A stretch of DNA of 64,000 nucleotides. It comes from a bacterium (GTDB lineage Bacteria > Myxococcota_A > UBA9160 > SZUA-336). Every line of letters starts with the position of its first letter. Within the stretch, counting starts at the first letter, position 1. Location of the stretch: the NCBI GenBank assembly GCA_041498295.1, contig JBGQIB010000004.1, positions 8 through 64,007 of the forward strand. Direction: 5' to 3'. Below are positions 9,248-55,544 of this stretch, in pieces. The notes under the pieces were generated by a model, which was not told where the DNA came from, ran no database searches, and saw only the letters and a program-made list of their open reading frames with translations. The translations under genes were made by a program, and so were the position numbers.

Positions 9248-9295
9248 GCGCGGCAGTTTACAGCTCCCGTGCCGGCGGGCTAAGGTCGGCACCCC

Positions 9296-9844: not shown

Positions 9845-10051
9845 GCTAGCTCGGCAGGGCGTCGAAGACGACGCGCAGCTCCGGCGGTGAGCGGAAGCCT
9901 CGCGGAGCCGCGCGAAGAGCTCGTGCAGTGACTGGGACGCCGCCAGACCGCGCGCCGGCGGTGGAGCGGGCCCTCCCCCCGCCACACTGCGTAGCGGGGT
10001 ACGGATCGCCCTACTGCGAGCGCATGTCGAACGTCGTCGACGGGGCATCGC

Positions 10052-10477: not shown

Positions 10478-10482
10478 CGCCG

Positions 10483-36518: not shown

Positions 36519-36522
36519 AGCC

Positions 36523-37437: not shown

Positions 37438-39440
37438 CGAGTCACTCCCGTCACGGCGAGCAGAGCGACGAGCGCGAGCCACACATACAGGAGGTACGCG
37501 TGGACGCTTCCCTGCTGCAGCACGCGAAGTCGGCCTGCGAGCTCCGCTAGCCCGCGCGCCGCGGGCACCACGAGCCGGTCGAGGACAGCATCGAGGACCT
37601 CGCTGTGGAACGTCGCGGGCCCGGGAAAGGTCGCCGCCAACCCCGGAGCGTGGACCCGTGGCCACAGCGCGAACGAGAACACGCGCACGAGCGGCGCGGC
37701 GAACGAGGAGGCCGAGTACTGCATTCGCGCGCTCGGAGCGCCGTAGCCGCAGTCCCAAGTTCCGGCGGCCGCGTGCTCCGCGCGCGCGAGGCGCGCGCGC
37801 AGCGCGAGGCCGATGCCCGCGCAGAGCGCGAGCACTGTGAGTGCGACGAGTGAGAAGGCGGCGAAGGGCGCGGAAAGGCCCGCGAGCGGAGTCCCGAGCG
37901 CGCTCGCCGCAGCCGCCGCGAGCGCGGGCGCGATCGCGAACGGCACGAGTCCGATCGCCGCGCACAGCGACGCGAGCAGCGCCATCGGCACAAGCATCAC
38001 GCCCGGAGCCTCATTCGTTCCGGTCAGCGCCCGCTGTCGCGGAGCGCCGAGAAACACGCTCCCGACGACCTTCGCGAAGCATGCGAGCGCGAGGCCGCCC
38101 GTCAGCGCGAGCGCCGGCGCCCCGAGGGCTGCGAGCACCCACACTGCGCCTCGCCCCGCGGCGACGACGCGCAGCAGTCCGGAGTAGACCAGGACCTCGC
38201 TCACGAAGCCGTTCAGCGGAGGCAGACCGACGATCGCGACGGCGCCGACGAGGAAGAAGCTCGCCGTCGCGGGCATCTCCTTCGCGATCCCGCCGAGCGC
38301 GTCGAGCGAGCGCGTGCCGGTGCGCTGGATGACGGCGCCTGCGCCCAGGAACAAGAGTCCCTTGAAGAGCGCGTGATTCACGACGTGCAGAAGGGCTCCA
38401 CTCATTGCGAGCGCCGCGGTGTCGAGGTCGCCGGCGGAGCGAGCCAGGAGCGCAACGCCGAGCCCGATCGCGATGATTCCGATGTTCTCGACGCTGTGAT
38501 ACGCGAGCAGCCGCTTCAAGTCGTGCTGCGCGAGCGCGTACGCGACTCCAAACACCGCGGATGCGATGCCCGCGACGAGCAGCGTCTCGCCCCACCAGAG
38601 CTGCGCGTCCGGTAGGAGGGAGACGACCCGCGCGATCCCGTAGATCCCCGACTTGATCAGCACGCCGGACAAGAGCGCCGAGACGTGCGTCGGGGCGGCC
38701 GCGTGCGCGGGCGGCAACCAGACGTGCAAAGGCACCAGGCCGGCCTTCAGCCCGAAGCCGACGAGCGCGAGCACGAAGAGCGCCGATTGGATCCCCGGCG
38801 CGATGCCCCCTACACGAACCGGTGTCCACTCGAACGATCCGGTCGCTGCAAAGAACAGCGCGAACAGCGCGAGCAGACAGAGCGTGCTGGCGCGCGTGCT
38901 CACGAGATAGAGAAAACCCGCGTCGCGTACGCCCGCGTCGTGCTCCTCGGCCGTGACGGCGAAGAAGGCGGCGATCGCCATGAGCTCCCAGCCGGCGAGG
39001 AACACCAGAGAGTGTCGCGCGACCAGCACGGAGACGAGGCCGGCGCTCGCGAGCCCGAACGAGACCCGAAGCCGCTCCGCGTTGCGCGGGTGGTCTTTGG
39101 CCGGAAAGTACGCAAGCGAGTAGAGCGCACACGCGGCGCTGAGCACCGCTACGGGAACGAGAAATAGCCCGGACAGCGCGTCGACCCCGACGACGAGCGC
39201 GCCGCCCGGAAAGCCGGCCGCGAACCTGAGTTCGTCGCCGCCGCCGGTGAGCGCAAGGATCGCCGCCGCGAGATCGATGGCGGCGCCCGAGACGAGCACG
39301 GCCACGCCGATTCGATCCGCTCGCCTCGGCCCGGCTCGGCGCGCGCAGAGCGCGGCGAAGCCGCTGGCTCCGATCCCCACGGCGCCGACCAGCGCGAGCA
39401 GCGTCGTCAACGACCGATCACCTCGCGCAGCGAAGCCCAT
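37434..39440 (-). CDS. NuoL/HyfB-like antiporter subunit (paralogue 2)
   Basis: 668 aa, NuoL/MrpA family, with 'LVPLHVWLPPAHAAAPTHVSALL' and 'YHSVENIG'. The ATG at 39440 overlaps the upstream gene by 34 bp. A TTG at 39410 would instead give a TTGA overlap. Confidence 0.75.
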   Translation of the reverse strand: MGFAARGDRSLTTLLALVGAVGIGASGFAALCARRAGPRRADRIGVAVLVSGAAIDLAAAILALTGGGDELRFAAGFPGGALVVGVDALSGLFLVPVAVLSAACALYSLAYFPAKDHPRNAERLRVSFGLASAGLVSVLVARHSLVFLAGWELMAIAAFFAVTAEEHDAGVRDAGFLYLVSTRASTLCLLALFALFFAATGSFEWTPVRVGGIAPGIQSALFVLALVGFGLKAGLVPLHVWLPPAHAAAPTHVSALLSGVLIKSGIYGIARVVSLLPDAQLWWGETLLVAGIASAVFGVAYALAQHDLKRLLAYHSVENIGIIAIGLGVALLARSAGDLDTAALAMSGALLHVVNHALFKGLLFLGAGAVIQRTGTRSLDALGGIAKEMPATASFFLVGAVAIVGLPPLNGFVSEVLVYSGLLRVVAAGRGAVWVLAALGAPALALTGGLALACFAKVVGSVFLGAPRQRALTGTNEAPGVMLVPMALLASLCAAIGLVPFAIAPALAAAAASALGTPLAGLSAPFAAFSLVALTVLALCAGIGLALRARLARAEHAAAGTWDCGYGAPSARMQYSASSFAAPLVRVFSFALWPRVHAPGLAATFPGPATFHSEVLDAVLDRLVVPAARGLAELAGRLRVLQQGSVHAYLLYVWLALVALLAVTGVTR

Positions 39441-41398
39441 GCCAGCGCCGCGACGACGGCCACCATGATGTAGGCGACGTACAGGTGTGCGTTCCCCTGC
39501 TGCAGCAAGCGCAGGCGCGTGAGGTAACTCGCGGCCGCCGCAAGAAGCGGCTCGTAGATGCGCGCGACGATGGGCTCCTCGTATCCCGCACGGAGCGACG
39601 CCGGCCCAGGGGTGACTCCGCGCAATGCGGGTTCGATGGTCCGCGGCGCCAAGACTCGGGGCAGTACGCCGCTCGCGAACAGCTGCGAGAATGAGTGGGC
39701 GGTGTACTGCATGCGCGAGCTAGGCGCTGTGTAGCCGCACGCCCAGGTTTCATCCTCTGCGCGCGCGCCGCTGCGAACCCGCGCGACGAGCAGCGTCGCG
39801 ACGACGGCGACGGCGAGCCAGAGCGCGAGCGACAGCGTGGCGAGAGGCCTGAGTGCGAGCGAGGCGTTCGTCAGCCCGCTCGCTCCGCTCTGGCTGCCCA
39901 GCAGCTCGCCGAGGGGCGCGCCGACGCCGCGAAGCGCGAGTGAGGGCGCGAGGCCGATCGCGACGCAGAGCAGAGCGAGTCCCGCCATGACGGCGAACAT
40001 CGATCCGCCGACGTCGTGCGCGCGCTTCGCGGCCTCGCTTCGCGCCTGGCCGAGAAACACCATCCCGAACAAACGAACGAAAGCCGCCGCGCCGAGCGCA
40101 CCGACCAGCGCGAGCAGCCCGAGCGCGAGCGACGCGACGACGGATCCGAGCGAACTCCCGTCCGTCACCGCGTGAAGGAAACCGAGATACAGGAGCCACT
40201 CACTCGCGAATCCGTTGAGCGGCGGGAGCGCGCCGAGCGCGACGGCTCCGAGCGCGAAGACCACGGCGAGGCGCGGCATCTGGCGCGCCAAGCCCCCGAG
40301 GCGCTCGAGGTCGCGCGTTCCGGCGCCGTGTTGAACCCCGCCCGCCGCGAAGAACAACAGGCCCTTCATCGCCGCGTGATTCCAGATGTGGAAGAGTCCC
40401 GCGGACAGCCCGAGCACCGCGAGCACGCCGTCGCCGCGTGCGAGCGCGGCGAGCCCGACGCCGAGGCCGAGACCGATCAGCCCGAGATTCTCGACGCTGG
40501 AGTGCGCGAGCGCTCGCTTCAGATCGCGCTGCGCAAGCGAGAGAGCGATCCCGAGCAACGCACCGACGAGCCCGAGGGCCGCGAGCGACAGACCGAACGC
40601 CGCGGGCGCGCCTCCAAGCAGCCACACGACGCGCAGCAGCCCGTAGTAGCCGAGCTTCACCATCGCGCCCGACATCAGCGCAGATACATGAGACGGCGCC
40701 GCGGCGTGCGCTTCGGGCAGCCAGACGTGCAGCGGGACGATGCCAGCCTTCACACCGAAGCCGACGAGCGCCAGCGCGAGAAGCGTGCCCGGGCTCGCCG
40801 CCGCGGACGTGAGCGCGGTGCCGGACGCTCCGCCGAGTGAGTCGCCGAGAAGCACGAAGAGCGCGAGCAGCGCGGCAGTGCCCATGTGCGATGCGACCAG
40901 ATAGATCCAACCCGCCCGCCGCGCTTCGGCGCGCTCGTGTTCGAAGGTCACGAGCAGATACGCGCAGAGCGACATGGTCTCCCAGGCGACGAGAAACAGA
41001 ATGCCGTTGCGCGCCAGGGTCACCGCGATCATGGCGGCGCAGAGCCCGTTGAAGAAGAGCCAGCTCACTCCGGCCCGACGCGGGTTGCCGTAGCTCGCGA
41101 GATAGGCGCGGCCGTAGAGCGCCGCGAGCGCCGAGAGCCCGAGCACCGGAACCAGAAAGAACGCCGACAGCGGATCGAGCCCGAATGACAGCGCGCCGCC
41201 GGGCAGGCTCCAGGGAAGCTCTGCGCGCAGCTCCACTCCTCCAGACAGCACGCGGACGACCGGCAGCAATCCGAGCAGCGCGGCGAGCGGCGCGCCGGCG
41301 CAGCCGAGTGCGGCGGACCAACGGGGCGAGCGCGCACTCGCGACCGCTGCGAGCCCCGAGGCGAGCAGAAGGGCGCACGCCGCGAGGAGCGCCGTCAT
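39407..41398 (-). CDS. NuoL/HyfB-like antiporter subunit (paralogue 1)
   Basis: 663 aa with 'IVPLHVWLPEAHAAAPSHVSALM' and 'HSSVENLG'. The ATG overlaps the upstream HTH-EIIA gene stop (ATGA). Confidence 0.75.
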   Translation of the reverse strand: MTALLAACALLLASGLAAVASARSPRWSAALGCAGAPLAALLGLLPVVRVLSGGVELRAELPWSLPGGALSFGLDPLSAFFLVPVLGLSALAALYGRAYLASYGNPRRAGVSWLFFNGLCAAMIAVTLARNGILFLVAWETMSLCAYLLVTFEHERAEARRAGWIYLVASHMGTAALLALFVLLGDSLGGASGTALTSAAASPGTLLALALVGFGVKAGIVPLHVWLPEAHAAAPSHVSALMSGAMVKLGYYGLLRVVWLLGGAPAAFGLSLAALGLVGALLGIALSLAQRDLKRALAHSSVENLGLIGLGLGVGLAALARGDGVLAVLGLSAGLFHIWNHAAMKGLLFFAAGGVQHGAGTRDLERLGGLARQMPRLAVVFALGAVALGALPPLNGFASEWLLYLGFLHAVTDGSSLGSVVASLALGLLALVGALGAAAFVRLFGMVFLGQARSEAAKRAHDVGGSMFAVMAGLALLCVAIGLAPSLALRGVGAPLGELLGSQSGASGLTNASLALRPLATLSLALWLAVAVVATLLVARVRSGARAEDETWACGYTAPSSRMQYTAHSFSQLFASGVLPRVLAPRTIEPALRGVTPGPASLRAGYEEPIVARIYEPLLAAAASYLTRLRLLQQGNAHLYVAYIMVAVVAALAWASLREVIGR

Positions 41399-42096
41399 GC
41401 GGTCGGCGAATTCGTTTCAGTGGCGAAGCCGGACTCTACTCGGCGCAGCACCGCCGCAATCTCATCTGGCGGTGCGCGCCGCTCGAGGACGCGGCGGAAG
41501 GCGGGGTCGTGCAGCGCTGCAGACAACCGCGAAAGCAGCCGCAGATGTGTACGACTGGTCGGAGTCACGATCACGAACAGGATCCCGACCGGCTTCCCGT
41601 CGAGCGCGCCGAACGGGATCGGCTCCTCGAGAAAGCAGAGCGCGACCGCGGGTCGCACGTGCAGCAGCACCGGGTTGCGAACATGCGGGATCGCGATGCC
41701 ATCGCCGATCGCCGTAGACCCGAGGTTCTCGCGCGCGAGCAGCACCTCGTAGAGAAACTCGCGGTCTACTTCCTCGGGGAGCTCGAGCACGCGCACGACG
41801 TCGCGCAGCACCGTCTCGCGATCGGCGCCGCCCTTCATGAAGTGGATGCCTCCGGCCTCGAGCGCGTCCTCCAATGTCGGAAGCGGCGCCTCCTCTCGGG
41901 AGGGTTCCGAGAAGAGCTCCGCGGATACGCGCACCCCTTGAGCCGTCGCCCATTCCAGCAGCTCTGCGCGATTGAAACGGTGCTGCCCGTGCGCGCGGTG
42001 GACGGGGAGACCTCGATCGTCGATCCAACGGTAGATCGTCTTATCGGGAACACCGAGCAGACGCGCGGCGTCCCGCACCGTGATCTTGACCCCCAC
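41395..42096 (-). CDS. Regulatory protein with an N-terminal MerR/excisionase-type HTH and a C-terminal PTS EIIA(Fru/Ntr)-like domain
   Basis: 'ITVRDAARLLGVPDKTIYRWIDDRGLPVHR' is an HTH. The C-terminal 150 aa contain 'AIGDGIAIPH', the EIIA type-2 phosphorylatable-His motif. It is the first gene of the membrane-complex operon. Confidence 0.65.
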   Translation of the reverse strand: MGVKITVRDAARLLGVPDKTIYRWIDDRGLPVHRAHGQHRFNRAELLEWATAQGVRVSAELFSEPSREEAPLPTLEDALEAGGIHFMKGGADRETVLRDVVRVLELPEEVDREFLYEVLLARENLGSTAIGDGIAIPHVRNPVLLHVRPAVALCFLEEPIPFGALDGKPVGILFVIVTPTSRTHLRLLSRLSAALHDPAFRRVLERRAPPDEIAAVLRRVESGFATETNSPTA

Positions 42097-42409: not shown

Positions 42410-43096
42410 GTGGCGGTGAGTCACGTGTGGCGGCCGTGGGCGTTCGGTCTGTTGGAACTCGGGTTTGCGTTTTCGTTCGCGGCGACTCCGGATGCGGCGA
42501 CCACCACTTGGTACTTCGAGGGCGTGGTTCGCGAGGTGGTCGAGGCGCCGGAGCTGACTCCGCTCGGTGTGACTCCGGGCACGGCATTCTCCGCGACGAT
42601 CTCGCTCGAGTCATCGATCGCCAACGACTCGGCGGACCCGGACTCCACCGACTACCCAGGCGCCATCCTCGCGGCTGACTTCAACGCCGGCACGTATCAC
42701 CTCTCGATCCAACCGAACCCGGGGTTGTCTCTCCTCCAGGTGTTCGCGCCGATCCCATTGCTCATCGCGCAGGGCGTGCGACTCGAGCCTGTCGGCTCTC
42801 CGCTAGAGAACCTTCTGGTCGAGCTGAGGGCCTTCGGAATCGCCCCCGGGGTCTTCGCGTTGGATGCAATGCCGATCGATCCGCCGTCGCTGGACGACCT
42901 GGCCCCATACCCGGAGTTGCCATCCGGCGTAGGCACGGCTCTTACGATCTCCGGCCATCACGACGGCATCGGTCACTACATGCAAGCCGAGATCACTCGC
43001 TGGGAGCGCGTGCCTGAGCCCGCCACGGGCGCGCTCGTGGGTCTCGTTCTTCTTGCGCCGCACGCGCTGCGACTCAGGAGGCGCCGGGCAGCTTGA
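42410..43096 (+). CDS. PEP-CTERM sorting-signal protein (secreted/exosortase substrate)
   Basis: The C-terminus 'VPEPATGALVGLVLLAPHALRLRRRRAA*' is a textbook PEP motif plus transmembrane helix plus Arg cluster. GTG at 42410 gives signal peptide 'VAVSHVWRPWAFGLLELGFAFSFAATP'. AAGG lies 9 nt upstream and the 5' region is low in GC. Confidence 0.6.
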   Translation: MAVSHVWRPWAFGLLELGFAFSFAATPDAATTTWYFEGVVREVVEAPELTPLGVTPGTAFSATISLESSIANDSADPDSTDYPGAILAADFNAGTYHLSIQPNPGLSLLQVFAPIPLLIAQGVRLEPVGSPLENLLVELRAFGIAPGVFALDAMPIDPPSLDDLAPYPELPSGVGTALTISGHHDGIGHYMQAEITRWERVPEPATGALVGLVLLAPHALRLRRRRAA

Positions 43097-44234
43097 TGCC
43101 CTGTTTCTCGAACTCCTTGGCGATCGCGCCGCCGTACTCGGCCAAGAGATCGCCGCGCGCCTTCTGCGTCGCCTCGATCGTCGCGATGCGGCCGGCGTTG
43201 CGGTCCTGGAAGCGCGGCATCACGTAGCGCGAGAAGAGCTCGTAACTCTTCTTTGTGTTGTCCCACGACGCCCAGTTATGCGCGAGCTGCAGGAACGTGC
43301 CGAAGCCGCCCGACTCGTTCTGCAGCCGCTCGAGCTGCTCGATCGCGTCGTCCGGCGTGCCGATCACCGCGAACCTCTGCGCGATCATGCTCTCGATCAC
43401 TTCGTCGACCGAGCCCGGCATGCCGAGCGGCAGCGACGCGACTTCGCGGAAGTAGAACAGCCAGTCACCGAGGCCGAAGCGCACGTTCGCGCGGGCTTGC
43501 TCGCGCGTCTCCGCGATGTGCATCGGTCCGACCAGGCGCCAGCGCGAGCGGTCTGCCTCGAACCCGTTCGCCTTGCTCGAATCCGTGTAGACCTGCCAGT
43601 TCATGCCGAGCATGCTGAAGCCCTCGAAGCTCGTCGCCCCGAGCGACAGGAGACCCGCGCCGTGCTTGCCCGCGATGCGTGCGCCGGCGGGCGAGATCTG
43701 CGACGCGACCGCGTATTCGAGGTTCTGACTGAACGGACGGAGCTGCAGCCGCGCGTCGACCAGCCGGAACCAGCTTCCGTCGTGAGTCACGGTCTCGCCG
43801 CGGAGCAGGCGCAGAATCACGCCGAGCCCCTCGTCGAGCATGTCGCGCTGCTTCGACGCTTCGAGCCCGAGCATGCGTGCGTCGGACTGGAGCGCGCCCG
43901 GGCCGGAGCCGAACATGACCCGGCCGCGAGTCATGTGGTCCAGCTGCACGATCCGCTCCGCGATCATGAACGGGTGATGGTACGGAACCGAGATGACACC
44001 CGTGCCGAGCCGGATGTGCCTCGTGTGCTGTGAGGCGATCGCGAGGAAGATCTCGGGCGACGCGATCAGCTCGAAGCCGGCGGAGTGGTGCTCTCCCACC
44101 CAGGCCTCGTCATAGCGCAGCTGATCGAGCCACTTCAGCAGCTCGAGGTCGCGGTCGAGACACGCCGTCGGGTCCTCGCGGACGGGATGGAACGGCGCGA
44201 GAAAGATCCCGAAGCGCAGCGGCGGATGGCTCAT
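43074..44234 (-). CDS. LLM-class (luciferase-like) flavin-dependent oxidoreductase
   Basis: 386 aa. 'MSHPPLRFGIFLAPFHP' matches an LLM N-terminus, and a TIM-barrel pattern runs throughout. Confidence 0.8.
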   Translation of the reverse strand: MSHPPLRFGIFLAPFHPVREDPTACLDRDLELLKWLDQLRYDEAWVGEHHSAGFELIASPEIFLAIASQHTRHIRLGTGVISVPYHHPFMIAERIVQLDHMTRGRVMFGSGPGALQSDARMLGLEASKQRDMLDEGLGVILRLLRGETVTHDGSWFRLVDARLQLRPFSQNLEYAVASQISPAGARIAGKHGAGLLSLGATSFEGFSMLGMNWQVYTDSSKANGFEADRSRWRLVGPMHIAETREQARANVRFGLGDWLFYFREVASLPLGMPGSVDEVIESMIAQRFAVIGTPDDAIEQLERLQNESGGFGTFLQLAHNWASWDNTKKSYELFSRYVMPRFQDRNAGRIATIEATQKARGDLLAEYGGAIAKEFEKQGIKLPGAS

Positions 44235-45903: not shown

Positions 45904-46577
45904 AGCGCTCGGCGGCGGCTCTGGCCGTGGTTCTCTCGGCTCTGGCATCGGTCGCGGGCGCTCAGGCCCAAGTCCAGACTCAGGAGTCACAGGCCGCGAT
46001 GACTCCGGCGCTGGCGCTCGAGCGGCTGCGCGACGGCAACGCGCGCTTCAGCGCGAATGCGACCAAGGCGCGCGACTGGTCGGCGAAGGTCGCGGCCACC
46101 GCGTCGGGTCAGTTCCCGTTCGCGGCGGTGCTCGCGTGCATGGACTCGCGCGCGCCGGTCGAGATCGTCTTCGACCAGGGCCTCGGCGACGTGTTCGGCG
46201 TGCGCGTCGCGGGAAACGTCGTGAACGACGACGAGCTCGGGAGCCTCGAATACGCCGCCAAGGTGGGCGCGAAGCTGATCGTGGTGCTCGGCCACACGCG
46301 CTGCGGCGCGGTGAGGGGCGCCATCGAGGGCGTCGAGCTCGGCAACTTGACCGGGTTACTCGCGAAGATCCACCCGGCCGTGGAAGCGGCGAAGTGCAGC
46401 GACGCCAAGAGCGACGCCTGTGTCACTTCGGTCGCCGAGCAGAACGTGCGCCAGTCGATGCGCGAGATCCGCGCGCGCAGCCCCTATCTCAGAAAGTATC
46501 TGGACGAGGGGAAGATCCAGCTGGTCGGCGCCATGTACGAGGTCGAGACGGGCCGGGTGACGTTTCTGAATCCCTAG
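45900..46577 (+). CDS. Beta-class carbonic anhydrase with an N-terminal signal peptide
   Basis: ATG at 45900 is preceded by GGGGAGA and overlaps the MBL stop (ATGA). 'MKRSAAALAVVLSALASVAGAQA' is a signal peptide. 'CMDSRAPVE' and 'GHTRCGAV' are the beta-CA zinc-ligand blocks. Confidence 0.8.
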   Translation: MKRSAAALAVVLSALASVAGAQAQVQTQESQAAMTPALALERLRDGNARFSANATKARDWSAKVAATASGQFPFAAVLACMDSRAPVEIVFDQGLGDVFGVRVAGNVVNDDELGSLEYAAKVGAKLIVVLGHTRCGAVRGAIEGVELGNLTGLLAKIHPAVEAAKCSDAKSDACVTSVAEQNVRQSMREIRARSPYLRKYLDEGKIQLVGAMYEVETGRVTFLNP

Positions 46578-47779
46578 TTGTCTGGCTTGATTTCCAGCTG
46601 TTTCTTCAAGCGTTCCTCGCGCTTCGCGCTGGCCCGCTCGGCGAGCTCCGTCTCGATCGCGCGCACTTCGAGCATCTTGCGGAAGCGCGCCAGCTTCTCG
46701 GGGTCGGGGATCGTCTTGTCGAAGCTCACCCAACAGGTGGCGCTCGCCTCGGTTCCCTGTTGCGACGTGGCGGTGAGGCGCAGCTCGTTGCGACCCTGCT
46801 GCAGGGGCGCGAAGCCGTCGAAGCTGCCGTCGGGGAAGAGGCGCACGGCGCGACCGGCTTCGCCGTTCGTCGTGTTCTCGAGCCGTACCTTCGCGATGCT
46901 CGTCCACGACAAGTACGGGACGAACTCGACGATGTCGCCGGGCTGGTCGAGCACGAGCAGCTCGCCGCCGTTCGCGCGCACGATCTCGTCGAAGCGGTCG
47001 CGCGCGACCGCGGCGGTGGGCCCGAGCGCATAGGCGTAGATGCGCGCGTGTGCGCGCGCGGCGTTCCGCGCGGCGTGAACCGAGATGCGCTGCGCGGCGC
47101 CTGGAGGCACGGGCGGCGACGTCGGCACCCCGTCCGAGAGGAGCAAGATCTCGCGCTGTCGAGTCACTCCGGGCTCGGCGGGCGCGGTCTCGAACGCGTC
47201 GATTGCCGTCTCGAGCGCGCCGTAGATGTTCGTGCCGTTCTCGTTCGGCCAGGGCGGGAGGGCGTCGAGCGCCGCGAGCAGCTGCGCGCGCGAGCTCCCG
47301 AGCGGCGCTTCGACCTTGGTGTTGCCGCCGAACGTGAGGATCGCCATGCGCGTGGTCTCGGGATCGAGGCGCTCGACCAGACGGCGCGCGGCCAGCGTCT
47401 CGGCGGAGACGATCGTGTCGCCGAAGTCGGAGGTCCAGAGCATGATCTCCTCAGGGGGCTCGCCGGGATATTGGCGCCCGACGACTCCGTCGCCGTCGAC
47501 GTCGACGCCGCTCGCGCGGAAGGTGCTGCCCGAGCGATCCAGCACGATCACCACGTCGTGCTTGCCGCGCAGACCCGTGCCCGCCCAGCCGCGCACTTCG
47601 ACGAGGTTGATCGGCTCGTGCACCGCATCGCCCGAGCGCGGCACGTCGACCTCGAGGTACACGCGCTCCGCGCGCGCCGAGGAGGCGAGCGCGGCCCCCA
47701 GCACTGCGAGTAGTATCCCAAGAGCGAGGCGCGGCACGCCCCGGAGGATCCCCGTGAAATTCACCTGGTTCAACCTCAT
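46574..47779 (-). CDS. Secreted von Willebrand factor A (VWA) domain protein
   Basis: 'VVIVLDRSGS' is the MIDAS DxSxS motif, with 'LLSDGVPT' further on. Signal peptide '..LALGILLAVLGAALASSARA'. The start is uncertain: ATG 47779, GTG 47737 or ATG 47839. Confidence 0.6.
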   Translation of the reverse strand: MRLNQVNFTGILRGVPRLALGILLAVLGAALASSARAERVYLEVDVPRSGDAVHEPINLVEVRGWAGTGLRGKHDVVIVLDRSGSTFRASGVDVDGDGVVGRQYPGEPPEEIMLWTSDFGDTIVSAETLAARRLVERLDPETTRMAILTFGGNTKVEAPLGSSRAQLLAALDALPPWPNENGTNIYGALETAIDAFETAPAEPGVTRQREILLLSDGVPTSPPVPPGAAQRISVHAARNAARAHARIYAYALGPTAAVARDRFDEIVRANGGELLVLDQPGDIVEFVPYLSWTSIAKVRLENTTNGEAGRAVRLFPDGSFDGFAPLQQGRNELRLTATSQQGTEASATCWVSFDKTIPDPEKLARFRKMLEVRAIETELAERASAKREERLKKQLEIKPDN

Positions 47780-48992
47780 GCCCTGGCCGCATCTGCCCGA
47801 GGACTTTCGGCAGAAGCATCGCTCCGTCTGGGTCGACATCGACAGTGCGCTCTATGACCCCGTCGTAGGCAACCGCGTCTACCACGAATACATGGATCAG
47901 CTCGAGTATGCCGACAGCCTGGGCTTCGACGGCATCGGCGTGAACGAGCATCACCAAAATGCGTATGGGCTCATGCCGTCGCCCAATATCATCGCCGCGG
48001 GGCTCGCGCGCCGGACGTCCCGCGCCGCGATCGCCGTGATCGGGAATTCGATCGCGCTCTACAACCCGCCGATCCGCGTCGCGGAGGAGTTCGCGATGCT
48101 CGACGTGATCTCCGGTGGCCGGCTGGTCGCCGGCTTCCCGGTCGGTACGCCGATGGACACGAACTTCTGCTACGGCCAGATCCCGGCGCTGACGCGCGAC
48201 AAGTACTACGAGGCGCACGAGCTGATCATGCGCGCGTGGGCGGAGCGCGAGCCGTTCGCGTTCGACGGGAAGTACAACCAGCTGCGCTACGTGAACTGCT
48301 GGCCGCGCCCGATCCAGAAGCCGCACCCGCCGATCTACATCCCGGGCGGCGGCTCGATCGAGACCTGGGACTTCTGCATCGAGCACGACTACAACTACTC
48401 GTATCTCTCCTACTCGGGTTACAAGGCGGGGAAGGCGCTGCTCGACGGCTACTGGGAGCGGGTCGCGGCACTGGGCAAGGACGAGTCACCGTATCGCGCC
48501 GCGTTCGCACAGGTCATCTGCGTGGCCGACACCGACGCGGACGCCGAGAAGCTCTACGCTGAGCACGTGCTCTACTTCTACAACCGCTGTCTGCACGTGT
48601 ATCTCGGCTTCGCGGATCCGCCGGGCTATCGCACCATCAAGACGATCCAGTCGGGCAAGCTGAATCAGTTCCGCGCCGAGAATCAGCAGCTATACACGTC
48701 GCTCAGTTGGAAGGATCTGGTCGATGGAGGCTACGTGATCGCCGGCTCGCCCGACACGGTGCGCGAGCGCATGGAGCACATGATCAAGGACCTGCGCCTC
48801 GGAGCGCTCTTCCTGTTGTTCCAGATCGGCAACATGCCCGACGACAAGGTGCGCCATTCGACGAAGCTGTTCGCCGAGCGCGTGATGCCGCAGCTGCGCG
48901 ACATCTGGCCCGAGTGGAAGCACGACGACCGCTTCTGGGTGAAGCCGCTCGAGTCACGCGTGCGCCCGGAGCTGCCCAGGAACGGCCGGTGA
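47754..48992 (+). CDS. LLM-class (luciferase-like) flavin/F420-dependent oxidoreductase
   Basis: GTG at 47754 has GGAGGA 6 nt upstream and gives 'VKFTWFNLMPWP', matching the MKFG.F LLM N-terminus. 412 aa. Confidence 0.75.
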   Translation: MKFTWFNLMPWPHLPEDFRQKHRSVWVDIDSALYDPVVGNRVYHEYMDQLEYADSLGFDGIGVNEHHQNAYGLMPSPNIIAAGLARRTSRAAIAVIGNSIALYNPPIRVAEEFAMLDVISGGRLVAGFPVGTPMDTNFCYGQIPALTRDKYYEAHELIMRAWAEREPFAFDGKYNQLRYVNCWPRPIQKPHPPIYIPGGGSIETWDFCIEHDYNYSYLSYSGYKAGKALLDGYWERVAALGKDESPYRAAFAQVICVADTDADAEKLYAEHVLYFYNRCLHVYLGFADPPGYRTIKTIQSGKLNQFRAENQQLYTSLSWKDLVDGGYVIAGSPDTVRERMEHMIKDLRLGALFLLFQIGNMPDDKVRHSTKLFAERVMPQLRDIWPEWKHDDRFWVKPLESRVRPELPRNGR

Positions 48993-49780
48993 TGCAAGAG
49001 CGGCGGATCGAGACGAAGCGCGGCTTGAAGTCGCGCGTCTTCGAAGCGGGGCAGGGCGCGCCGCTCGTGTTCTTCCACGGCGCGGGGGGACTCTTCAAGG
49101 AAGAGCCGCTGCTGGAGCGCTTGTCGGCGCGCTTCCACGTGTTCGCGCCCGAGTGGCCGGGCTACGGCGCCGACGCCGGCGAGGAGAAGCTCGAGGACAT
49201 GCTCGACTTCGCGCTGCACGGCTGGGACGTCGTCGATGCGCTGGGGCTCGAGCGGCCGAACGTGATCGGTCATTCGATGGGCGGAATGATCGCGGCCGAG
49301 ATGGCGTGCATCGCCAACCGCGCGCTCGCGAAGCTGGTGCTGATCGCGCCCGCGGGCGTGTGGATCGACTCACTCCCGGTCCCGGACATCTTCTCGATGC
49401 TGCCCTTCGAGCTCGTCGGCGCGCTGTTCGCCGACGCGAAGAACGGCGAGAAGTTCCTGACGGGCGGGATCGACTTCTCGAATCCGGACGCTCTGCAGCA
49501 GTTCCTGGTCCAGAACTCCCGGCGGCTCGGAACGGCGGGGAAGATCCTGTTTCCGATCCCGAACCGGCGCGTCTCGAAACGTCTGTATCGACTCACTGCG
49601 CCGACCTTGATCGTCTGGGGCAAGGCGGACAGGCTGATGCCGCCGCCTTACGCGGATCGCTGGCAGCAGCTCATTCCGCACGCGCGGCTCGCGCTCGTCG
49701 ACGGCGGCGGTCACATGGTGCCGCACGAGCAACCGGACGCGGTTGCCAGCGAGATCGAGCGCTTTCTCGGCAGTCCGTGA
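48992..49780 (+). CDS. Alpha/beta hydrolase
   Basis: The ATG overlaps the LLM stop (TGATG). 'VFFHGAGG' is the HG motif, 'GHSMGG' the nucleophile elbow, and 'GGGHMVPHEQP' the His region. Confidence 0.75.
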   Translation: MQERRIETKRGLKSRVFEAGQGAPLVFFHGAGGLFKEEPLLERLSARFHVFAPEWPGYGADAGEEKLEDMLDFALHGWDVVDALGLERPNVIGHSMGGMIAAEMACIANRALAKLVLIAPAGVWIDSLPVPDIFSMLPFELVGALFADAKNGEKFLTGGIDFSNPDALQQFLVQNSRRLGTAGKILFPIPNRRVSKRLYRLTAPTLIVWGKADRLMPPPYADRWQQLIPHARLALVDGGGHMVPHEQPDAVASEIERFLGSP

Positions 49781-51309
49781 GCGAAGTCGCGCACGCGCGC
49801 AGCGGCCGCCTCGAGGGCGCGCGCTCGCGCGGCGGCCTCGTGTTTCGCGGGATTCCGTACGCGGCGCCGCCGGTGGGCGGATTGCGTTTTCGCGCGCCGC
49901 AGCCCGTCGCCCCCTGGCGCGACGTGCGCAGCGCGACTCACTTCGGCGCCAGCGCGCCGCAGATGGGCGCGATGAACTGGCTGGTGGCCCGCGTGCTCGG
50001 CGCCACGGCGGGCCGCCAGAGCGAGGACTGTCTCACCCTGAACGTGTGGACCCCCGCGCTCGACGGCCGACGCCGAGCGGTGTTGGTCTTCGTGCACGGC
50101 GGCGCGTTCATCTTGGGCTCGGGCAGCACGCCGCTGTACAGCGGATCGCGCCTCTCGGCGCGCGGCGACGTCGTCGTGGTGACGCTCAACTACCGACTCG
50201 GGGCGCTCGGCTCGCTCGACCTGCGCGACGTCCTGCCCGACGGGCGCGACTCGGAGACGAACCTCGGACTGCGCGACCAACTCGCCGCGCTCGAGTGGGT
50301 GCGCGCGAACATCGACGCGTTCGGCGGCGATCCTGCGTCCGTCACGGTCTTCGGTGAGTCGGCCGGCGCGATGAGCTTGGGCGCGCTGCTCGCAAGCCCG
50401 CGCGCCCGCGGCCTGTTCCGGCGCGCGATCCTGCAGAGCGGCGCGGCACACAACGTATCGTCGCCCGCGCAGGCGCGGCGCGTCGCCGAGGAGTTCGTCT
50501 CGCGCCTCGGCCCCGCGGGCAAGAGCCTCGCTGGGCTGCGCGCCGCGGCGCCGGTCGAGCTCCTGCGTGCGCAGGCAGATACGGGCGCCGCGCTCGCGCT
50601 CGAGCTCGGCGGCCTCGCGTTCCAACCCAGCGTGGACGGCGACGTCCTGCCTGAGCCACCCCTCGACGCGCTGGCGCGCGGGGCGGCCTCCGACGTCGCG
50701 CTGCTCGCGGGCACGAACGCCGCTGAGTGGAAGCTCTTCATGCTCGGCGATCTGCGCGCGCGGCGCATGGACGACGAGATGCTGCGCCGCCGCTTCGCGC
50801 GCGCGCTCGGCGACGCGCACGTCGAGCGCGCCTTCACGGCGTACGCGCGCGCGCCGCTCGCGCGTGCTCCCGAGGCGCCCCACGAGCGCTGGTCGGCGTT
50901 CCAGTCCGACCGCGTCTTCACTTGGCCGGCGACTCGGCTGCTCGATCTGCACGCGTCTCAGTCGCGCGAGACCTACGCGTACCGCTTCGACTGGGCGCCG
51001 CCGCTCGCCGGCGCGCGCATCGGCGCGTGTCACGGCATCGAGCTCCCGTTCGTGTTCGGCGCGATCCTCGAGCCGTGGCTGCGGCCGGTGGTCGGCGCGG
51101 CGCCGGGCGCGCGCAAGCTCGCCCACCGCGTACAGGAGGCGTGGCTCGCGTTCGCAAAGACCGGTCACCCGGGTCACTCGGGATTGCCGTATTGGCCGTC
51201 CTATGACACCGACAAACGTCACGCGATGCAGCTCGGGCGGCGCTGCAGCGCCTTCCTCGACTACGGCCGCGACGCGCTGCACTTCTGGCAGTCATGCGAG
51301 AGCCCGTGA
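49777..51309 (+). CDS. Carboxylesterase type B (PnbA-like)
   Basis: The GTG overlaps the upstream stop (GTGA). 'EDCLTLNVWTP', 'VFVHGGAF', 'GGDPASVTVFGESAGA' and the C-terminal acyl-pocket blocks are present. Confidence 0.8.
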   Translation: MSEVAHARSGRLEGARSRGGLVFRGIPYAAPPVGGLRFRAPQPVAPWRDVRSATHFGASAPQMGAMNWLVARVLGATAGRQSEDCLTLNVWTPALDGRRRAVLVFVHGGAFILGSGSTPLYSGSRLSARGDVVVVTLNYRLGALGSLDLRDVLPDGRDSETNLGLRDQLAALEWVRANIDAFGGDPASVTVFGESAGAMSLGALLASPRARGLFRRAILQSGAAHNVSSPAQARRVAEEFVSRLGPAGKSLAGLRAAAPVELLRAQADTGAALALELGGLAFQPSVDGDVLPEPPLDALARGAASDVALLAGTNAAEWKLFMLGDLRARRMDDEMLRRRFARALGDAHVERAFTAYARAPLARAPEAPHERWSAFQSDRVFTWPATRLLDLHASQSRETYAYRFDWAPPLAGARIGACHGIELPFVFGAILEPWLRPVVGAAPGARKLAHRVQEAWLAFAKTGHPGHSGLPYWPSYDTDKRHAMQLGRRCSAFLDYGRDALHFWQSCESP

Positions 51310-52760
51310 AGTCGCCGGAACACCTCGAGTCACGGCGCGCGTTCGAGGCGGCCGCCGGCGTTCTGCTCGACGCGATCGACACGATCGCCCTCGTGCTCGA
51401 CCCCGCCGGACGGATCGTGCTCGCGAACCGCGCGTGCGAGGCGCTGCTCGGCATCCCCGTCGAGAAGATGCTCGGGCGCTCGCCGCTCGAGCTGGCCTTC
51501 GGGCCCGCGGAAGCGTGCGCCGAGCAAGCGATCGGTGACGCGCAGGTTCGCACGCCCGCCGGAGAGATCCGACTGGTGGCCTGGTCGAGCCGCGTCTTGT
51601 TCGAGCCCGACGGCACGGTGCGCTGCGTCGTGGCCACCGGCAGCGACGTCACGGACGCACGCGCGACGGAGCGCCGCCTGCGCGAGAGTGAGCGGCGCTT
51701 CCGCGAGCTGGCCGAGAACGTGAACGATCTGGTCGCCGAGCTGACGGCCGAAGGCACCTTCGCCTACGTGAACCCGCGCTTCGAAGCGGTGCTCGGCTTC
51801 ACTTCGGAGGAGTTACTCGGTCACTCCGTCTTCGAGTACGTACACCCCGGAGATCACGACGAGACGCGCTCCGTCATGCGCGAGTTCGATCGGCCGGGCA
51901 TGTCGCGGCAAACCACGATGCGCGTGCAGCACCGTGCGGGCGGGCATCGCTCGCTCGAGTCGGTCGCGCGCACCTTCGTCGCGCCCGACGGACAGCTCCG
52001 CTTCGCCGTGATCTCGCGCGACGTCTCGGAGCGCGCCGCGGCGGAGAACGAGCTGCGCCGCGTGGATCGCCTGGTCGCCATGGGCACGTTCGCAGCGGGC
52101 GTCGCGCACGAAATCAACAATCCGGTGGCCGCGATCCTGCTCGCCGCCGAGGTCGCGCTCGAGCGGCCACCTCTCGAGCTCGGCGACGCGCGAGACACGC
52201 GCGCCCTCGAGTCCATCGCGAATCATGCGCGTCGCTGCGCGGCGATCGTGCGCTCGATGCTCGGCTTCGCGGCACAGGGTCGCGGCGAACGGCGGCTGCA
52301 CGACGTGAACGAGCTCGTGGCGCACGCGATCGCGCTGTCCGATCCCTACGCCCGTGAGCACGGCGCATGCTTGCGGCTCGACGCGGAGGCGAGCCTGCCG
52401 CGCATCCGCTGCAACGGAATCGAGATCGAACAGGTGTTCGTCAACCTGTTGCGCAACGCGCTCGAGTCACGGCGCTCCGGCGTGTCGGTCGATGTCGAGA
52501 CACGCGCGCTGGATGACTCCGTCCGCGTCTCGGTCAGCGACGACGGCGAAGGCACTCCCGACACGCTGGGCGCACAGATCTTCGAGCCGTTCTACTCGAC
52601 GAAACACGCGAGCGGCGGGACGGGCCTCGGGCTCGCGATCTGCCTGCGGATCGTGGCGGACCACGGCGGCGAAATCCGCCTGGAGCATCGGCCGGTCGCC
52701 GGCACGCGCTTCATCGTCGAGCTGCCGACCGCGCGAGCGAGCTCGTGGCGAGCGTTCTGA
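51306..52760 (+). CDS. Cytoplasmic sensor histidine kinase with two PAS domains
   Basis: The GTG at 51306 overlaps the esterase stop (GTGA); ATG at 51294 is an alternative. Two PAS blocks are followed by H-box 'AAGVAHEINNPVAAI', N-box 'NLLRNALES', 'DDGEG' and 'GTGLGLAI'. Confidence 0.75.
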   Translation: MKSPEHLESRRAFEAAAGVLLDAIDTIALVLDPAGRIVLANRACEALLGIPVEKMLGRSPLELAFGPAEACAEQAIGDAQVRTPAGEIRLVAWSSRVLFEPDGTVRCVVATGSDVTDARATERRLRESERRFRELAENVNDLVAELTAEGTFAYVNPRFEAVLGFTSEELLGHSVFEYVHPGDHDETRSVMREFDRPGMSRQTTMRVQHRAGGHRSLESVARTFVAPDGQLRFAVISRDVSERAAAENELRRVDRLVAMGTFAAGVAHEINNPVAAILLAAEVALERPPLELGDARDTRALESIANHARRCAAIVRSMLGFAAQGRGERRLHDVNELVAHAIALSDPYAREHGACLRLDAEASLPRIRCNGIEIEQVFVNLLRNALESRRSGVSVDVETRALDDSVRVSVSDDGEGTPDTLGAQIFEPFYSTKHASGGTGLGLAICLRIVADHGGEIRLEHRPVAGTRFIVELPTARASSWRAF

Positions 52761-53119
52761 TCGCGGAGGACGAGCGCCAGCTCGCCGACACCCTGGCCGA
52801 GGTGTTGCGCGGCGCGGGTCACGCGGTGCGTATCGCGGAGGGCGGGAGTCAGGCGCTCTCGCTCGCAAGTGAATTTCCCCCGGACCTCCTGATCTCGGAC
52901 TGGGCGCTGGGGGGCACGCCTGACGGCATGGAGCTGATCGTGCGTCTGCGCGTGACTCGACCGGGCCTGCGCGCGATTCTGATGACCGGCTATCCGTCCG
53001 CGCGCCTGCGCGCCTTCGCGGGAGCCGATCCAGCGCTGGGCATGCTCGAGAAGCCGTTCTCGCTCGCCGAGCTCCGCGCGGTGCTCGCGCGTGTGCTCGC
53101 GGTCAAGGCACCGGCTTGA
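52745..53119 (+). CDS. Stand-alone response-regulator receiver (REC) domain protein
   Basis: 'VLIAEDERQ...DLLISDWAL...LMTGY...EKPF' carries the DD, D and K landmarks. The GTG start overlaps the kinase 3' end by 16 bp. Confidence 0.65.
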   Translation: MASVLIAEDERQLADTLAEVLRGAGHAVRIAEGGSQALSLASEFPPDLLISDWALGGTPDGMELIVRLRVTRPGLRAILMTGYPSARLRAFAGADPALGMLEKPFSLAELRAVLARVLAVKAPA

Positions 53120-55544
53120 GATTCCAGATCGCGGTCGCGTACTCGCGCACCGCCCGGTCGCTCGAGAAGTAACCCATGCGCGCGACGTTCAGGATCGCGC
53201 GCCGATCCCACTCGTCGCACAAGAGCCAGTCCCGCGCGACCTGCTCCTGCGCTTCGCCATACGAGAGGAAGTCCGCGAGCGCCAGCCAGCGGTCCTCGCG
53301 TTCGAGCCCGTCGACCAGGTGCGCGAAGCGCTGCGGCTCGTCCGGTGAGAAGCGGCCGGAGCGCAGCGCGTCGAGCACGCGCGCGATGCGCGGCGTGCGC
53401 GCGGCCAGCGCGGCCGGGTCGTAAGTGCCGCTCGCGCGCAGCGCGGCGACCTCGTCGGCGCGCAGCCCGAAGATGTACACGTTCTCGGCGCCCACGCGCT
53501 CGCGCATCTCGATCGTCGCGCCGTCGAGCGTGCCGATCGTGAGCGCGCCGTTCAGCGCGAGCTTCATGTTTCCCGTGCCCGACGCCTCTTGGCCCGCGGT
53601 CGAGATCTGTTCCGAGAGATCCGCCGCCGGAATGATCTTCTCGGCGAGTGATACTCGATAGTCCGGCACGAACACGGCGCGCAGCTTGCCGCGCGTGCGC
53701 GGGTCCTTGTTCACCACCGCCGCGACGTCGTTGATCAGCCGGATCACGAGCTTCGCCGCGAAATACTCGGGCGCTGCCTTGCCCGCGAAGATACACGCGC
53801 GCGGCGCGACGGGATCGCGGCCATCGTCGGAGATCTCGAGATAAGACTCGATGATGCGCAGCGCGGCGAGCAGCTGCCGCTTGTACTCGTGGATGCGCTT
53901 CACCTGCACGTCGAACATCGTGTCTGGGTCGAGGCGCACGCCGGTCGCCTGCGCGATCACGCCGCTTGCGCGCGCCTTGTTGCTGCGCTTCACGTCGCGG
54001 AACGCGCGCCTGAACTCCGGGTCCTCTGCGTGCGGCTCGAGCTCGCGCAGCGCCTCGAGGTCCGTCTTCCAGTCGTTGCCGATGCGCGAGGTGATCAAGT
54101 CCGAGAGACCGCGGTTCGCCTTCATCAACCAGCGGCGCGGCGAGACACCGTTCGTCTTGTTCTGGAAGCGACCCGGCCAGAGCTCCGCGAAGTCGGGCAC
54201 GAGCGAGCTCTTCACGAGCTCGGAGTGGAGCTTCGAGACACCGTTGACCGCATGACTGCCGACGATCGCGAGGTGGGCCATCCGCACCTGCTGTGGGTGG
54301 CCCTCCTCGATGATCGACATGCGCCGCCGGCGCTCGACGTCGCCCGGCCAACGCACCTCGACCTCGCCGAGAAAGCGCGCGTTGATCAGCTCGATGATCT
54401 GGAGGTGGCGCGGCGCGAGGTGCGCGAGCAGCGGTTTCGACCAGCGCTCCAGCGCCTCGGGCAGGAGCGTGTGATTCGTGTACGCGAAGCTGCGCTGCGC
54501 GAGCTCGAACGCGCGCTCGAACGGCATTCCGTGGTCGTCGACGAAGATGCGAATCAGCTCCGCCACGGCGAGCGCCGGATGCGTGTCGTTCAGCTGGATC
54601 GCGACCTTCTCGGGGAAGCTGTCGAAGCCGCGCCGCGTGGTGAGGTAGCGCGCGACGAGGTCGCGCAGCGAGCACGCGACGAAGAAGTACTCCTGCAGGA
54701 GCCGCAGCTCCTTGCCTTCGCTGGTCGAGTCGGGCGGATAGAGCACCTTCGAGACGCGCTCCGACTGCAGCTTCTGCTCGAACGCGCGCTGATAGTCGCC
54801 CTTGTGGAAGATGCCGATGTCGAATTCGTCCGAGGCCAGCGCCGAGTAGAGCCGCAGCACGTTCACCGTGCGCCCGCCGAAGCTGACGATGGGCAGATCG
54901 TCCGGCGCGCCGAGCAGAACGCGTTGGTGCGTCCAGCGCGTGTGTCGCAGGTCGTCGCCCGACGCAATCTTCTCGATCGTGCCGTACACCGGAATGCGTA
55001 GCGTCTCGTCGCGCTTCGCGATCATCCACGGCGAGCCCTGCGCGCGCCAGCTGTCGGGATACTCGCGCTGCTCGCCGTTCTCGATCGCCTGCCGGAAGAG
55101 GCCGTGCTCGTAGTTGATCCCGTAGCCGAAGCCGGGCATGTCGAGGCTGGCGAGTGAGTCGAGGTAGCAGGCCGCGAGCCGCCCGAGGCCTCCGTTGCCC
55201 AGCGCCGCGTCGGATTCGAGCTCGCGCAGCGCCTCGAGGTCGACGCCGAGCGACGCGAGTGTGCTGCGCACCGGCTCGAGCATGCCGAGGTTCAACAGGT
55301 TGTTGCCGAGAGAGCGCCCCATCAGGAACTCGACCGAGAAGTAGTAGAGGCGCTTCGCGTCCGCGGCGCGGTAGCGCTCCTCCGTGGCGAGCATCTGCTC
55401 GACGAGCGGCTCGCGCACCGACAGCGACACCGCCGTGAACAAGTCGCGCGGCGAAGCGTCCTGCCAGCGCTTTCCCAGCGCGTAGCGCAGGTTGCGCTGC
55501 ACCGACACGGCGAAGTCGGGCAGGGCGGCGGGGCTCTCGGTCAT
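53103..55544 (-). CDS. glgP: Glycogen/maltodextrin phosphorylase
   Basis: 813 aa. 'YFSVEFLMGRSLGNNLLNLG' and the PLP-site block 'EASGTGNMKLALNGALTIGTLDGA' are present. Confidence 0.9.
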   Translation of the reverse strand: MTESPAALPDFAVSVQRNLRYALGKRWQDASPRDLFTAVSLSVREPLVEQMLATEERYRAADAKRLYYFSVEFLMGRSLGNNLLNLGMLEPVRSTLASLGVDLEALRELESDAALGNGGLGRLAACYLDSLASLDMPGFGYGINYEHGLFRQAIENGEQREYPDSWRAQGSPWMIAKRDETLRIPVYGTIEKIASGDDLRHTRWTHQRVLLGAPDDLPIVSFGGRTVNVLRLYSALASDEFDIGIFHKGDYQRAFEQKLQSERVSKVLYPPDSTSEGKELRLLQEYFFVACSLRDLVARYLTTRRGFDSFPEKVAIQLNDTHPALAVAELIRIFVDDHGMPFERAFELAQRSFAYTNHTLLPEALERWSKPLLAHLAPRHLQIIELINARFLGEVEVRWPGDVERRRRMSIIEEGHPQQVRMAHLAIVGSHAVNGVSKLHSELVKSSLVPDFAELWPGRFQNKTNGVSPRRWLMKANRGLSDLITSRIGNDWKTDLEALRELEPHAEDPEFRRAFRDVKRSNKARASGVIAQATGVRLDPDTMFDVQVKRIHEYKRQLLAALRIIESYLEISDDGRDPVAPRACIFAGKAAPEYFAAKLVIRLINDVAAVVNKDPRTRGKLRAVFVPDYRVSLAEKIIPAADLSEQISTAGQEASGTGNMKLALNGALTIGTLDGATIEMRERVGAENVYIFGLRADEVAALRASGTYDPAALAARTPRIARVLDALRSGRFSPDEPQRFAHLVDGLEREDRWLALADFLSYGEAQEQVARDWLLCDEWDRRAILNVARMGYFSSDRAVREYATAIWNLKPVP

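Follow-up and report, generated by a model that had tools for sequence, protein, structure and literature searches.

Does a row of tightly packed genes represent one functional system, or an older core to which other genes were added later? This question is raised by five plus-strand genes, here called A to E, at positions 47754-53119 of a stretch of 64,000 nucleotides (the window) from a bacterium of the Myxococcota_A (assembly GCA_041498295.1, contig JBGQIB010000004.1). In a preliminary description of this DNA, they were regarded as a self-contained module for ester or lactone processing, made from one transcript and equipped with its own sensing arm. The coordinates, the Pfam assignments and the GC content by codon position, in a window of approximately 70% GC, all agree with five genes in these frames that are joined by overlapping junctions, and Pfam also agrees with the identities originally given to the products. 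Comparison with homologous loci leads to another view of the whole. As a combination of five genes, the locus is no conserved system. It is an ordinary operon that was built in steps, a local evolutionary accident, and the more interesting part of it is the uncharacterised A-B cassette that is found across phyla. The five genes are the following.

47754-48992, plus strand: gene A, flavin-dependent luciferase-like monooxygenase (LLM) of 412 amino acids; GTG start; Pfam PF00296 Bac_luciferase, E=6e-36
48992-49780, plus strand: gene B, α/β-fold serine hydrolase of 262 amino acids; ATG start; Pfam Abhydrolase_6 and Abhydrolase_1
49777-51309, plus strand: gene C, type-B carboxylesterase of 510 amino acids; Pfam COesterase (PF00135), E=9e-109
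51306 (GTG) or 51294 (ATG) to 52760, plus strand: gene D, histidine kinase with the Pfam domain order PAS-PAS-HisKA-HATPase_c
52745-53119, plus strand: gene E, single-domain response regulator of 124 amino acids; Pfam Response_reg only, E=1e-16

Distribution of the A-B pair and of genes C, D and E

Homologous loci were sought in one genome per species. A relative of gene A was present in at least 592 loci, of which the best 80 were inspected. In these 80 loci, A is 69-93% identical and B 47-80% identical to the proteins of the window, and the two identities fall together. The loci belong to at least eight phyla, i.e., Myxococcota, Actinomycetota, Chloroflexota, Dormibacterota, Binatota, Methylomirabilota, Alphaproteobacteria and Acidobacteriota. 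When all five proteins were used as tblastn queries, about 77 of the 80 loci had B immediately after A, three had C and one had D-E. Clustering of all open reading frames in the same loci gave no third conserved partner of A and B. The next commonest neighbours are genes for a short-chain dehydrogenase/reductase (SDR; 19 loci), an acyl-CoA dehydrogenase (11), an AMP-ligase (10) and an enoyl-CoA hydratase (7), at varying positions. A and B thus appear as an old two-gene unit that has been inherited together across many phyla. The idea of a module of an oxygenase and an ester hydrolase is therefore reasonable for A and B as a cross-phylum pair, but it does not extend to the five genes.

Several loci illustrate how the pair is embedded elsewhere. 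One of them (L088, with A at 82% identity) consists only of genes for an SDR, a cytochrome P450 (P450), A and B, which is the gene set expected for sub-terminal oxidation. In a locus from the Bryobacteraceae (L068), A and B are followed by an FMN_red gene, and on a plasmid of Neorhizobium petrolearium (L089) the order is FMN_red, LLM, α/β-hydrolase. A locus on plasmid pJCM12687 of Mycobacterium branderi (L090, positions 8001-12793) encodes an LLM that is 48% identical to A, an α/β-hydrolase, an Abhydrolase_3 esterase, a Flavin_Reduct protein and RibBA. This is a version of the A-B cassette that was elaborated independently and has its own flavin supply, and a second esterase, from another family, was recruited independently there after an A-B-type pair.

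Two further details of these plasmids can be mentioned. At 7222-12683 of the N. petrolearium locus, two LLM/α/β-hydrolase pairs adjoin each other, one in the order hydrolase-LLM and the other in the reverse order, FMN reductase-LLM-hydrolase, and a GntR regulator separates them. In M. branderi, Mce transporter genes lie near the locus.

Within the Myxococcota, the build-up of the five-gene form can be followed in steps. Where A is 92-97% identical, A to E are present in this order between a gene for a VWA-domain protein on one side and the glycogen genes GlgP and MalQ on the other. Loci with A at 87-88% identity also start from the VWA gene, but carry genes for a peptidyl-prolyl isomerase (PPIase) and a HupE/UreJ protein between B and C, reach GlgP directly after C, and lack both D and E. 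In another locus (L002), the VWA gene and A, B and C are followed by different downstream genes. In a neighbour-joining tree of A and B together, all loci with C fall into one clade, in which the ABCDE loci and the ABC or AB..C loci are sister subclades. Gene C accompanies A-B only in this one Myxococcota clade, and beyond the clade its closest homologues (55-56% identical) stand alone among unrelated genes. D and E are found in a single subclade only, where the synteny of the unrelated flanks (VWA, GlgP and MalQ) is just as strong. It is therefore not possible to tell the co-occurrence of D-E with A-C apart from shared ancestry. The best explanation is that C, and then D-E, joined the old A-B unit later, as lineage-specific additions. 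Gene-neighbourhood analysis was the test that the preliminary description had itself proposed for its self-contained module, and with C in a single clade and D-E in a single subclade, that part of the description falls.

Two peculiarities of the Myxococcota loci stand beside this series. A fragmented contig (L091) has the same order from the VWA gene to MalQ. At its positions 3200-12300, the VWA gene, A, B, C and GlgP are all in fragments and D and E are intact, which reflects either frameshift errors in the contig or a decaying locus. Furthermore, the pair of PPIase (SurA_N/Rotamase_2) and HupE_UreJ_2 genes is present twice in L086 (4531-6407 and 12021-14122) and likewise in L003 (12037-14123), with one copy upstream beside a DUF3604 gene and one between B and C. 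This points to a duplication or an insertion that took place locally.

Predicted functions of the gene products

The product of gene A clearly passes the gathering score of PF00296 (124.8 bits, cut-off 27.9). None of the curated NCBIfam subfamilies of LLMs, such as those for Atu2307 (2I7G), the F420 families, MupA, MsnO8, SsuD, NtaA/DmoA and SfnG, claims it: the best of its 20 matches, TIGR03858, gives 85 bits at a cut-off of 462, and all 20 remain far below their cut-offs. Database searches gave more than 7,800 homologues, of which the best 120 are named generically or not at all. The AlphaFold2 (AF2) model of the protein is a (β/α)8 TIM barrel (pLDDT 78.5, pTM 0.84). A Foldseek search with this model, which confirms the LLM fold and does not discriminate between reaction types, gives probability 1.00 to 7bip, 2i7g, 8cbb, 4uwm and 1luc, with TM values of 0.66-0.79 normalised by target length. 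The best fold matches, all at approximately 20% identity, are LLMs that depend on flavin mononucleotide (FMN), namely RslO1, Atu2307, luciferases, 3,6-diketocamphane monooxygenase and MsuD. Sequence and model together place the protein in the LLM superfamily, i.e., among the class C flavin monooxygenases. The best solved relative in sequence is RslO1 (7bip; E=1e-17, over part of the protein only). The 3,6-diketocamphane monooxygenase (4uwm), with a sequence E of 2.8e-7 and approximately 20% structural identity, ranks below the epoxidase-type LLM and the luciferases, and these comparisons gave no specific sequence relationship to the characterised Baeyer-Villiger monooxygenases (BVMOs) of type II. 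Because flavin reductase genes adjoin relatives of A, the enzyme is most probably a two-component system that uses reduced FMN (FMNH2).

Two other identities were considered in this context. LadA is missing from the matches in the Protein Data Bank (PDB), and a LadA-type alkane hydroxylase was set aside. A lux system was rejected for A-B, with scores below the family cut-offs.

A second luciferase-like monooxygenase gene is located 3.5 kb upstream of A on the opposite strand (43074-44234, minus strand; PF00296, E=5.5e-42). Tblastn detects no similarity between it and gene A, and relatives have it at the same place (4550-5707 in L082, 1-1080 in L086). It is followed by genes for a glyoxalase, a protein of the metallo-β-lactamase (MBL) fold and a β-carbonic anhydrase.

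Gene B is predicted to encode an α/β-hydrolase with a Ser95-Asp213-His241 catalytic triad. The corresponding motifs, i.e., HGxxG (H29-G..G33), GHS95MGG, D213 and H241, are kept in at least 95% of 70 homologues, and the arginines R177, R192, R197 and R200 are conserved as well. In the PDB, its sequence matches esterases and meta-cleavage-product hydrolases best (E=8e-15), a resemblance that is generic only. An epoxide hydrolase was rejected, as the nucleophile is a Ser and not an Asp. The Rut pyrimidine pathway, in which the LLM RutA works with the hydrolase RutD and the reductase RutF, was rejected as well: RutA is not among the matches of A, B scores 53.8 bits against a RutD cut-off of 238.5, and the neighbourhood holds no rutB-, rutC-, rutE- or rutF-like genes.

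Gene C matches Pfam COesterase over nearly the whole profile (365 bits, positions 3-501 of 515), and its translation contains the GESAG nucleophile motif ('FGESAGAMS'). Among PDB entries, it matches 8wdm at 1e-107 and PnbA and Est50 at 1e-97 to 1e-104. No signal peptide is evident and the protein appears to be cytoplasmic. On these grounds, C is assigned to the type-B carboxylesterases of the PnbA/Est50 kind. It resembles Bacillus PnbA and Geobacillus Est50 in the full-length match (E=1e-97 to 1e-108), the motif and the apparent location, and differs from them in that it sits, in this lineage, in an operon behind an LLM-hydrolase pair.

Gene D encodes a cytoplasmic protein with two PAS domains, HisKA and HATPase_c. 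H272 in the H-box AHEINNP and the N, G1 and G2 boxes (N384-N388, DDGxG and G442-G446) are invariant in three aligned copies, i.e., the one in the window and two orthologues. The translation of E holds D9/E10, D52, T81 and K103. By these residues, D and E are predicted to be an intact two-component phosphotransfer pair. The orthologue group of D is narrow, with identities of 53-99% followed by a drop to 46% or less, and every orthologue context examined is one syntenic A-B-C-D-E locus. With this domain order in the kinase, and with a second protein that is a receiver only and has all phospho-acceptor residues, D and E resemble the pairs of an orphan PAS kinase and a CheY-like, single-domain regulator that are numerous in Myxococcota. 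D and E reach the NCBIfam cut-off of none of the named families (AtoS, EspC, FixL, CpdR), CpdR being the best match of E. As Response_reg is the only domain in its 124 residues, without a DNA-binding or enzymatic output domain, E cannot regulate transcription on its own.

The preliminary description had advised a check of the PAS domains of D for residues that bind FAD or heme, and sequence comparison gave no evidence of such a cofactor: they have no LOV Cys motif, no clear FixL-type match and no heme or flavin signature, although the PAS cofactor is not decidable from sequence. The closest solved PAS domains are of the HIF/ARNT type or belong to uncharacterised sensors. The original notion of a sensing arm is not supported either, as the synteny of D-E does not exceed that of the unrelated flanks and E has no output domain. 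D and E as a dedicated regulatory arm of the operon are unproven; the pair may respond to a pathway metabolite, or may simply be inserted at the site.

Proposed reaction of the A-B pair and its alternatives

The comparisons show the gene identities, the catalytic residues, the overlaps and the pattern of conservation, and the cofactor, the type of reaction and the roles of C, D and E that follow here are inferred. A free flavin reductase that is encoded elsewhere would supply FMNH2 to A. Via a flavin peroxide, A would insert oxygen beside the carbonyl of a hydrophobic substrate, a reaction of the Baeyer-Villiger type that yields an ester or a lactone. B would hydrolyse this product to an alcohol and an acid, which would then enter ordinary lipid or β-oxidation metabolism. 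At this locus, the synthesis of A and B would be translationally coupled. C, as a broad-specificity PnbA-like esterase that was added in one Myxococcota clade, would probably widen or back up ester cleavage. D and E would have been inserted in one subclade between C and the glycogen genes, and any link to the enzymes would need protein-protein interaction or a further partner, because there is no DNA-binding output. The Baeyer-Villiger part of this scheme is suggested by the fixed pairing of A and B across phyla, by the SDR, P450 and acyl-CoA genes that recur nearby, and by the second esterase in M. branderi. Taken as a whole, this reading, with a stepwise operon around an oxygenating A and a hydrolysing B and with C as an accessory, is given slightly better than even confidence.

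Known systems offer precedents for such a scheme. The type II BVMOs, such as the 2,5- and 3,6-diketocamphane monooxygenases of the CAM plasmid, have the same LLM TIM-barrel fold as A. They are two-component enzymes with a separate flavin reductase, and reductases likewise adjoin relatives of A; what they form, an ester or a lactone, has to be hydrolysed. Another member is the LLM EGO55_13860 of Caenibius tardaugens, which converts progesterone to testosterone acetate in a Baeyer-Villiger reaction (PMC12239570). A is, however, only about 20% identical to the 3,6-diketocamphane monooxygenase, no closer than to LLMs of other chemistry, and the window holds no reductase. Moreover, ring opening of the camphor lactones is spontaneous, and an adjacent hydrolase, as in A-B, is missing from the progesterone cluster. 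A closer parallel in architecture is found on plasmid pANTQ-1 of Sphingobium sp. AntQ-1, where the LLM sphantq_4473 and the contiguous α/β-hydrolase_6 sphantq_4474 are induced on 9,10-anthraquinone and have been proposed to act as type II BVMO and lactone hydrolase (PMC9836352). This pair shares the two-gene layout of an LLM and a contiguous Abhydrolase_6 with A-B, a likeness of architecture. It is plasmid-borne and substrate-specific, whereas the A-B family is chromosomal, shows much stronger conservation and extends over many phyla.

Oxygen insertion followed by ester hydrolysis, as proposed for A-B, is also the principle of the cassettes of BVMO and esterase that act on ketones in sub-terminal alkane or methyl-ketone oxidation. 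In their classical form, these cassettes contain BVMOs of type I, which depend on FAD and NADPH. The same principle underlies a scheme for SAR202, with a P450, an SDR, a BVMO of the LLM type (FMN-monooxygenase) and an esterase, which is itself a genomic hypothesis (PMC5395668). It is echoed by the row of SDR, P450, A and B described above and by the relatives in Chloroflexota and Binatia metagenome-assembled genomes. By analogy, the locus probably works like these known or proposed pairs of LLM-type BVMO and esterase, while A fits no characterised LLM subfamily. The earlier remark that the enzyme combination is not a named pathway is fair, but pairs of LLM and α/β-hydrolase had already been proposed as type II BVMO with lactone or ester hydrolase (PMC9836352, PMC5395668).

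Several points weigh against the proposed scheme. A is no closer in sequence or model to Baeyer-Villiger enzymes than to epoxidases, luciferases and sulfonate monooxygenases, and tblastn with two reductase types found no flavin reductase homologue in the 64-kb window. At approximately 70% identity between phyla, A is far more conserved than is usual for an enzyme of xenobiotic catabolism, which hints at a common endogenous or ubiquitous substrate, one that the Baeyer-Villiger model does not identify. Outside its clade, C is tied to A-B by the single analogous case in M. branderi. The neighbourhood counts cover the best 80 of at least 592 loci, and co-transcription of A to E, although plausible, is deduced only from the spacing of the genes.

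Possibly, A and B do form a functional pair and A uses another chemistry, i.e., it hydroxylates, epoxidises, or cleaves C-N or C-S bonds like RutA, SsuD, MsnO8 or RslO1. B would then process a labile intermediate, or provide the substrate in the way that LuxD does for luciferase. This is in line with the closest solved relatives of A, i.e., the epoxidase-type RslO1, Atu2307 and the luciferases, and with the scores of sulfonate monooxygenases, which are about the same as that of the Baeyer-Villiger enzyme. For B, weak matches to the RutD, PcaD, perhydrolase (BpoC) and meta-cleavage-product hydrolase families point in the same direction, and the four conserved arginines suggest an anionic substrate. 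Nevertheless, A is below the cut-off of RutA, SsuD, NtaA and every other curated family, and B has a Ser in place of the Asp of epoxide hydrolases. The SDR, P450 and acyl-CoA enzyme genes near the pair in other phyla fit ketone or lipid oxidation, and the published LLM and α/β-hydrolase pairs are read as BVMO and lactone hydrolase (PMC9836352). We therefore regard a chemistry other than Baeyer-Villiger as a serious alternative, though a doubtful one.

A bolder proposal, and a somewhat more speculative one, is that A-B is the catalytic core of an undescribed, very widespread aerobic pathway, present in at least 592 species-level genomes and at least eight phyla, with one specific and ubiquitous substrate. 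Such a substrate is suggested by the conservation of A, which is about 70% identical between phyla and belongs to no curated family. Candidates, put forward just as tentatively, would be a common lipid-, terpenoid- or quinone-derived ketone, and not assorted xenobiotics. If this were true, the Myxococcota version with its extra esterase and its PAS kinase and receiver would be a regulated, elaborated variant.

For the five-gene locus itself, an ordinary catabolic-looking operon, little changes. The importance lies in the pair, which marks a large, strongly conserved and unannotated LLM family with a fixed hydrolase partner. Its substrate, once identified, would give a function to thousands of proteins from soil and aquatic bacteria that are now annotated as 'LLM class flavin-dependent oxidoreductase' or 'alpha/beta hydrolase'. 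A-B could also add a new flavin-dependent biocatalyst for oxygen insertion, with a matching esterase.

Gene packing, transcription and boundaries of the locus

The genes of the chain are joined very closely. A stops and B starts on one shared base (TGATG), B and C overlap by four nucleotides (GTGA), C and D by four (GTGA, with the start at 51306) or 16 (ATG at 51294), and D and E by 16. In the close relative L082, 8 of the 12 same-strand adjacent gene pairs overlap by 1-8 nucleotides. These include unrelated neighbours, such as the genes for the glyoxalase, the MBL-fold protein and the carbonic anhydrase, or GlgP and MalQ. C and D are separated there by a gap of 10 nucleotides and D and E by one of three. 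Because same-strand neighbours, even unrelated ones, commonly overlap in this relative, the overlaps in the A-E chain are not above the genomic background and carry little extra information.

A scan of 46500-53600 detected no promoter-like sites inside the chain, and terminator-like sites were at chance level (four found, 2.9 expected from shuffles), in a genome of 70% GC for which such a scan is uninformative. An Rfam search of 40-60 kb gave no matches. The lack of internal promoter and terminator signals fits a single transcript without proving it, so that the one transcript of the preliminary description is plausible; the overlaps, from which it had been deduced, add little to the case.

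These observations also bear on two opposite views of C, D and E. According to one, there is only tight packing beyond A-B, and the three genes are functionally unrelated and merely co-oriented in a compact, high-GC genome. The frequency of overlaps between unrelated neighbours in L082 speaks for this, as do the solitary C-type esterases elsewhere and the gain or loss of D-E and the insertion of PPIase and HupE genes, which show that the site tolerates unrelated genes. Yet C still adjoins A-B in L002 despite a different downstream context, an esterase of another family also follows the A-B-type pair of M. branderi, and no promoter-like or convincing terminator-like signals interrupt the chain; mere packing is, on balance, unlikely, though it deserves attention. 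According to the other view, all five genes form a dedicated, self-contained module for an ester, lactone or signal molecule, with the PAS kinase as the sensor of substrate or product and the receiver as the controlling element. All five are indeed co-oriented and overlapping, every orthologue of D that was found (59-99% identical) sits in the A-B-C-D-E arrangement, and the catalytic and phospho-acceptor residues of D and E are intact. However, the arrangement is limited to the subclade where the VWA gene, GlgP and MalQ are just as syntenic, the sister subclade lacks both D and E and its B and C are parted by two unrelated genes, and more than 70 other A-B loci lack C, D or E. With, in addition, a receiver devoid of a DNA-binding or enzymatic output and PAS domains free of LOV, heme or FAD signatures, a dedicated five-gene module is improbable.

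Both ends of the chain are delimited by genes on the opposite strand, and a Shine-Dalgarno sequence precedes gene A.

46574-47737, minus strand: 5′ boundary, divergent gene for a VWA-domain protein with a signal peptide; Pfam VWA_2 and VWA
47743-47747, plus strand: Shine-Dalgarno sequence GGAGG of gene A, 6 nucleotides before the GTG start, read from the sequence
53103-55544, minus strand: 3′ boundary, convergent glycogen phosphorylase gene; Pfam Phosphorylase, E=4e-300, and TIGR02093 above its cut-off

The start position of gene A is strongly supported by comparison: a start codon is found at the same aligned position (MKFTWFNLMPWP...) in 78 of the 80 homologous loci, and most of these loci have a GGAGG-like site at the same distance before it. 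The VWA gene probably starts with the GTG at 47737, approximately 16 nucleotides from the start of A, which matches the start called in L082. As an alternative, an ATG at 47779 would make the VWA gene and A overlap by 26 nucleotides. With the two starts so close, both promoters must be within the coding sequence of the neighbour. At the other end, E and the glycogen phosphorylase gene overlap by 17 nucleotides at their 3′ ends (53103-53119), leaving no space for a terminator between the two genes.

Elsewhere in the window, the AT skew is strongly positive (0.25-0.33) over approximately 8 kb at 33000-41400 (minus strand), at genes for complex-I/Mrp-like membrane subunits, i.e., three Proton_antipo_M proteins, one NADHdh protein and one 30kDa/49kDa fusion. 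This is an ordinary compositional effect of membrane-protein genes.

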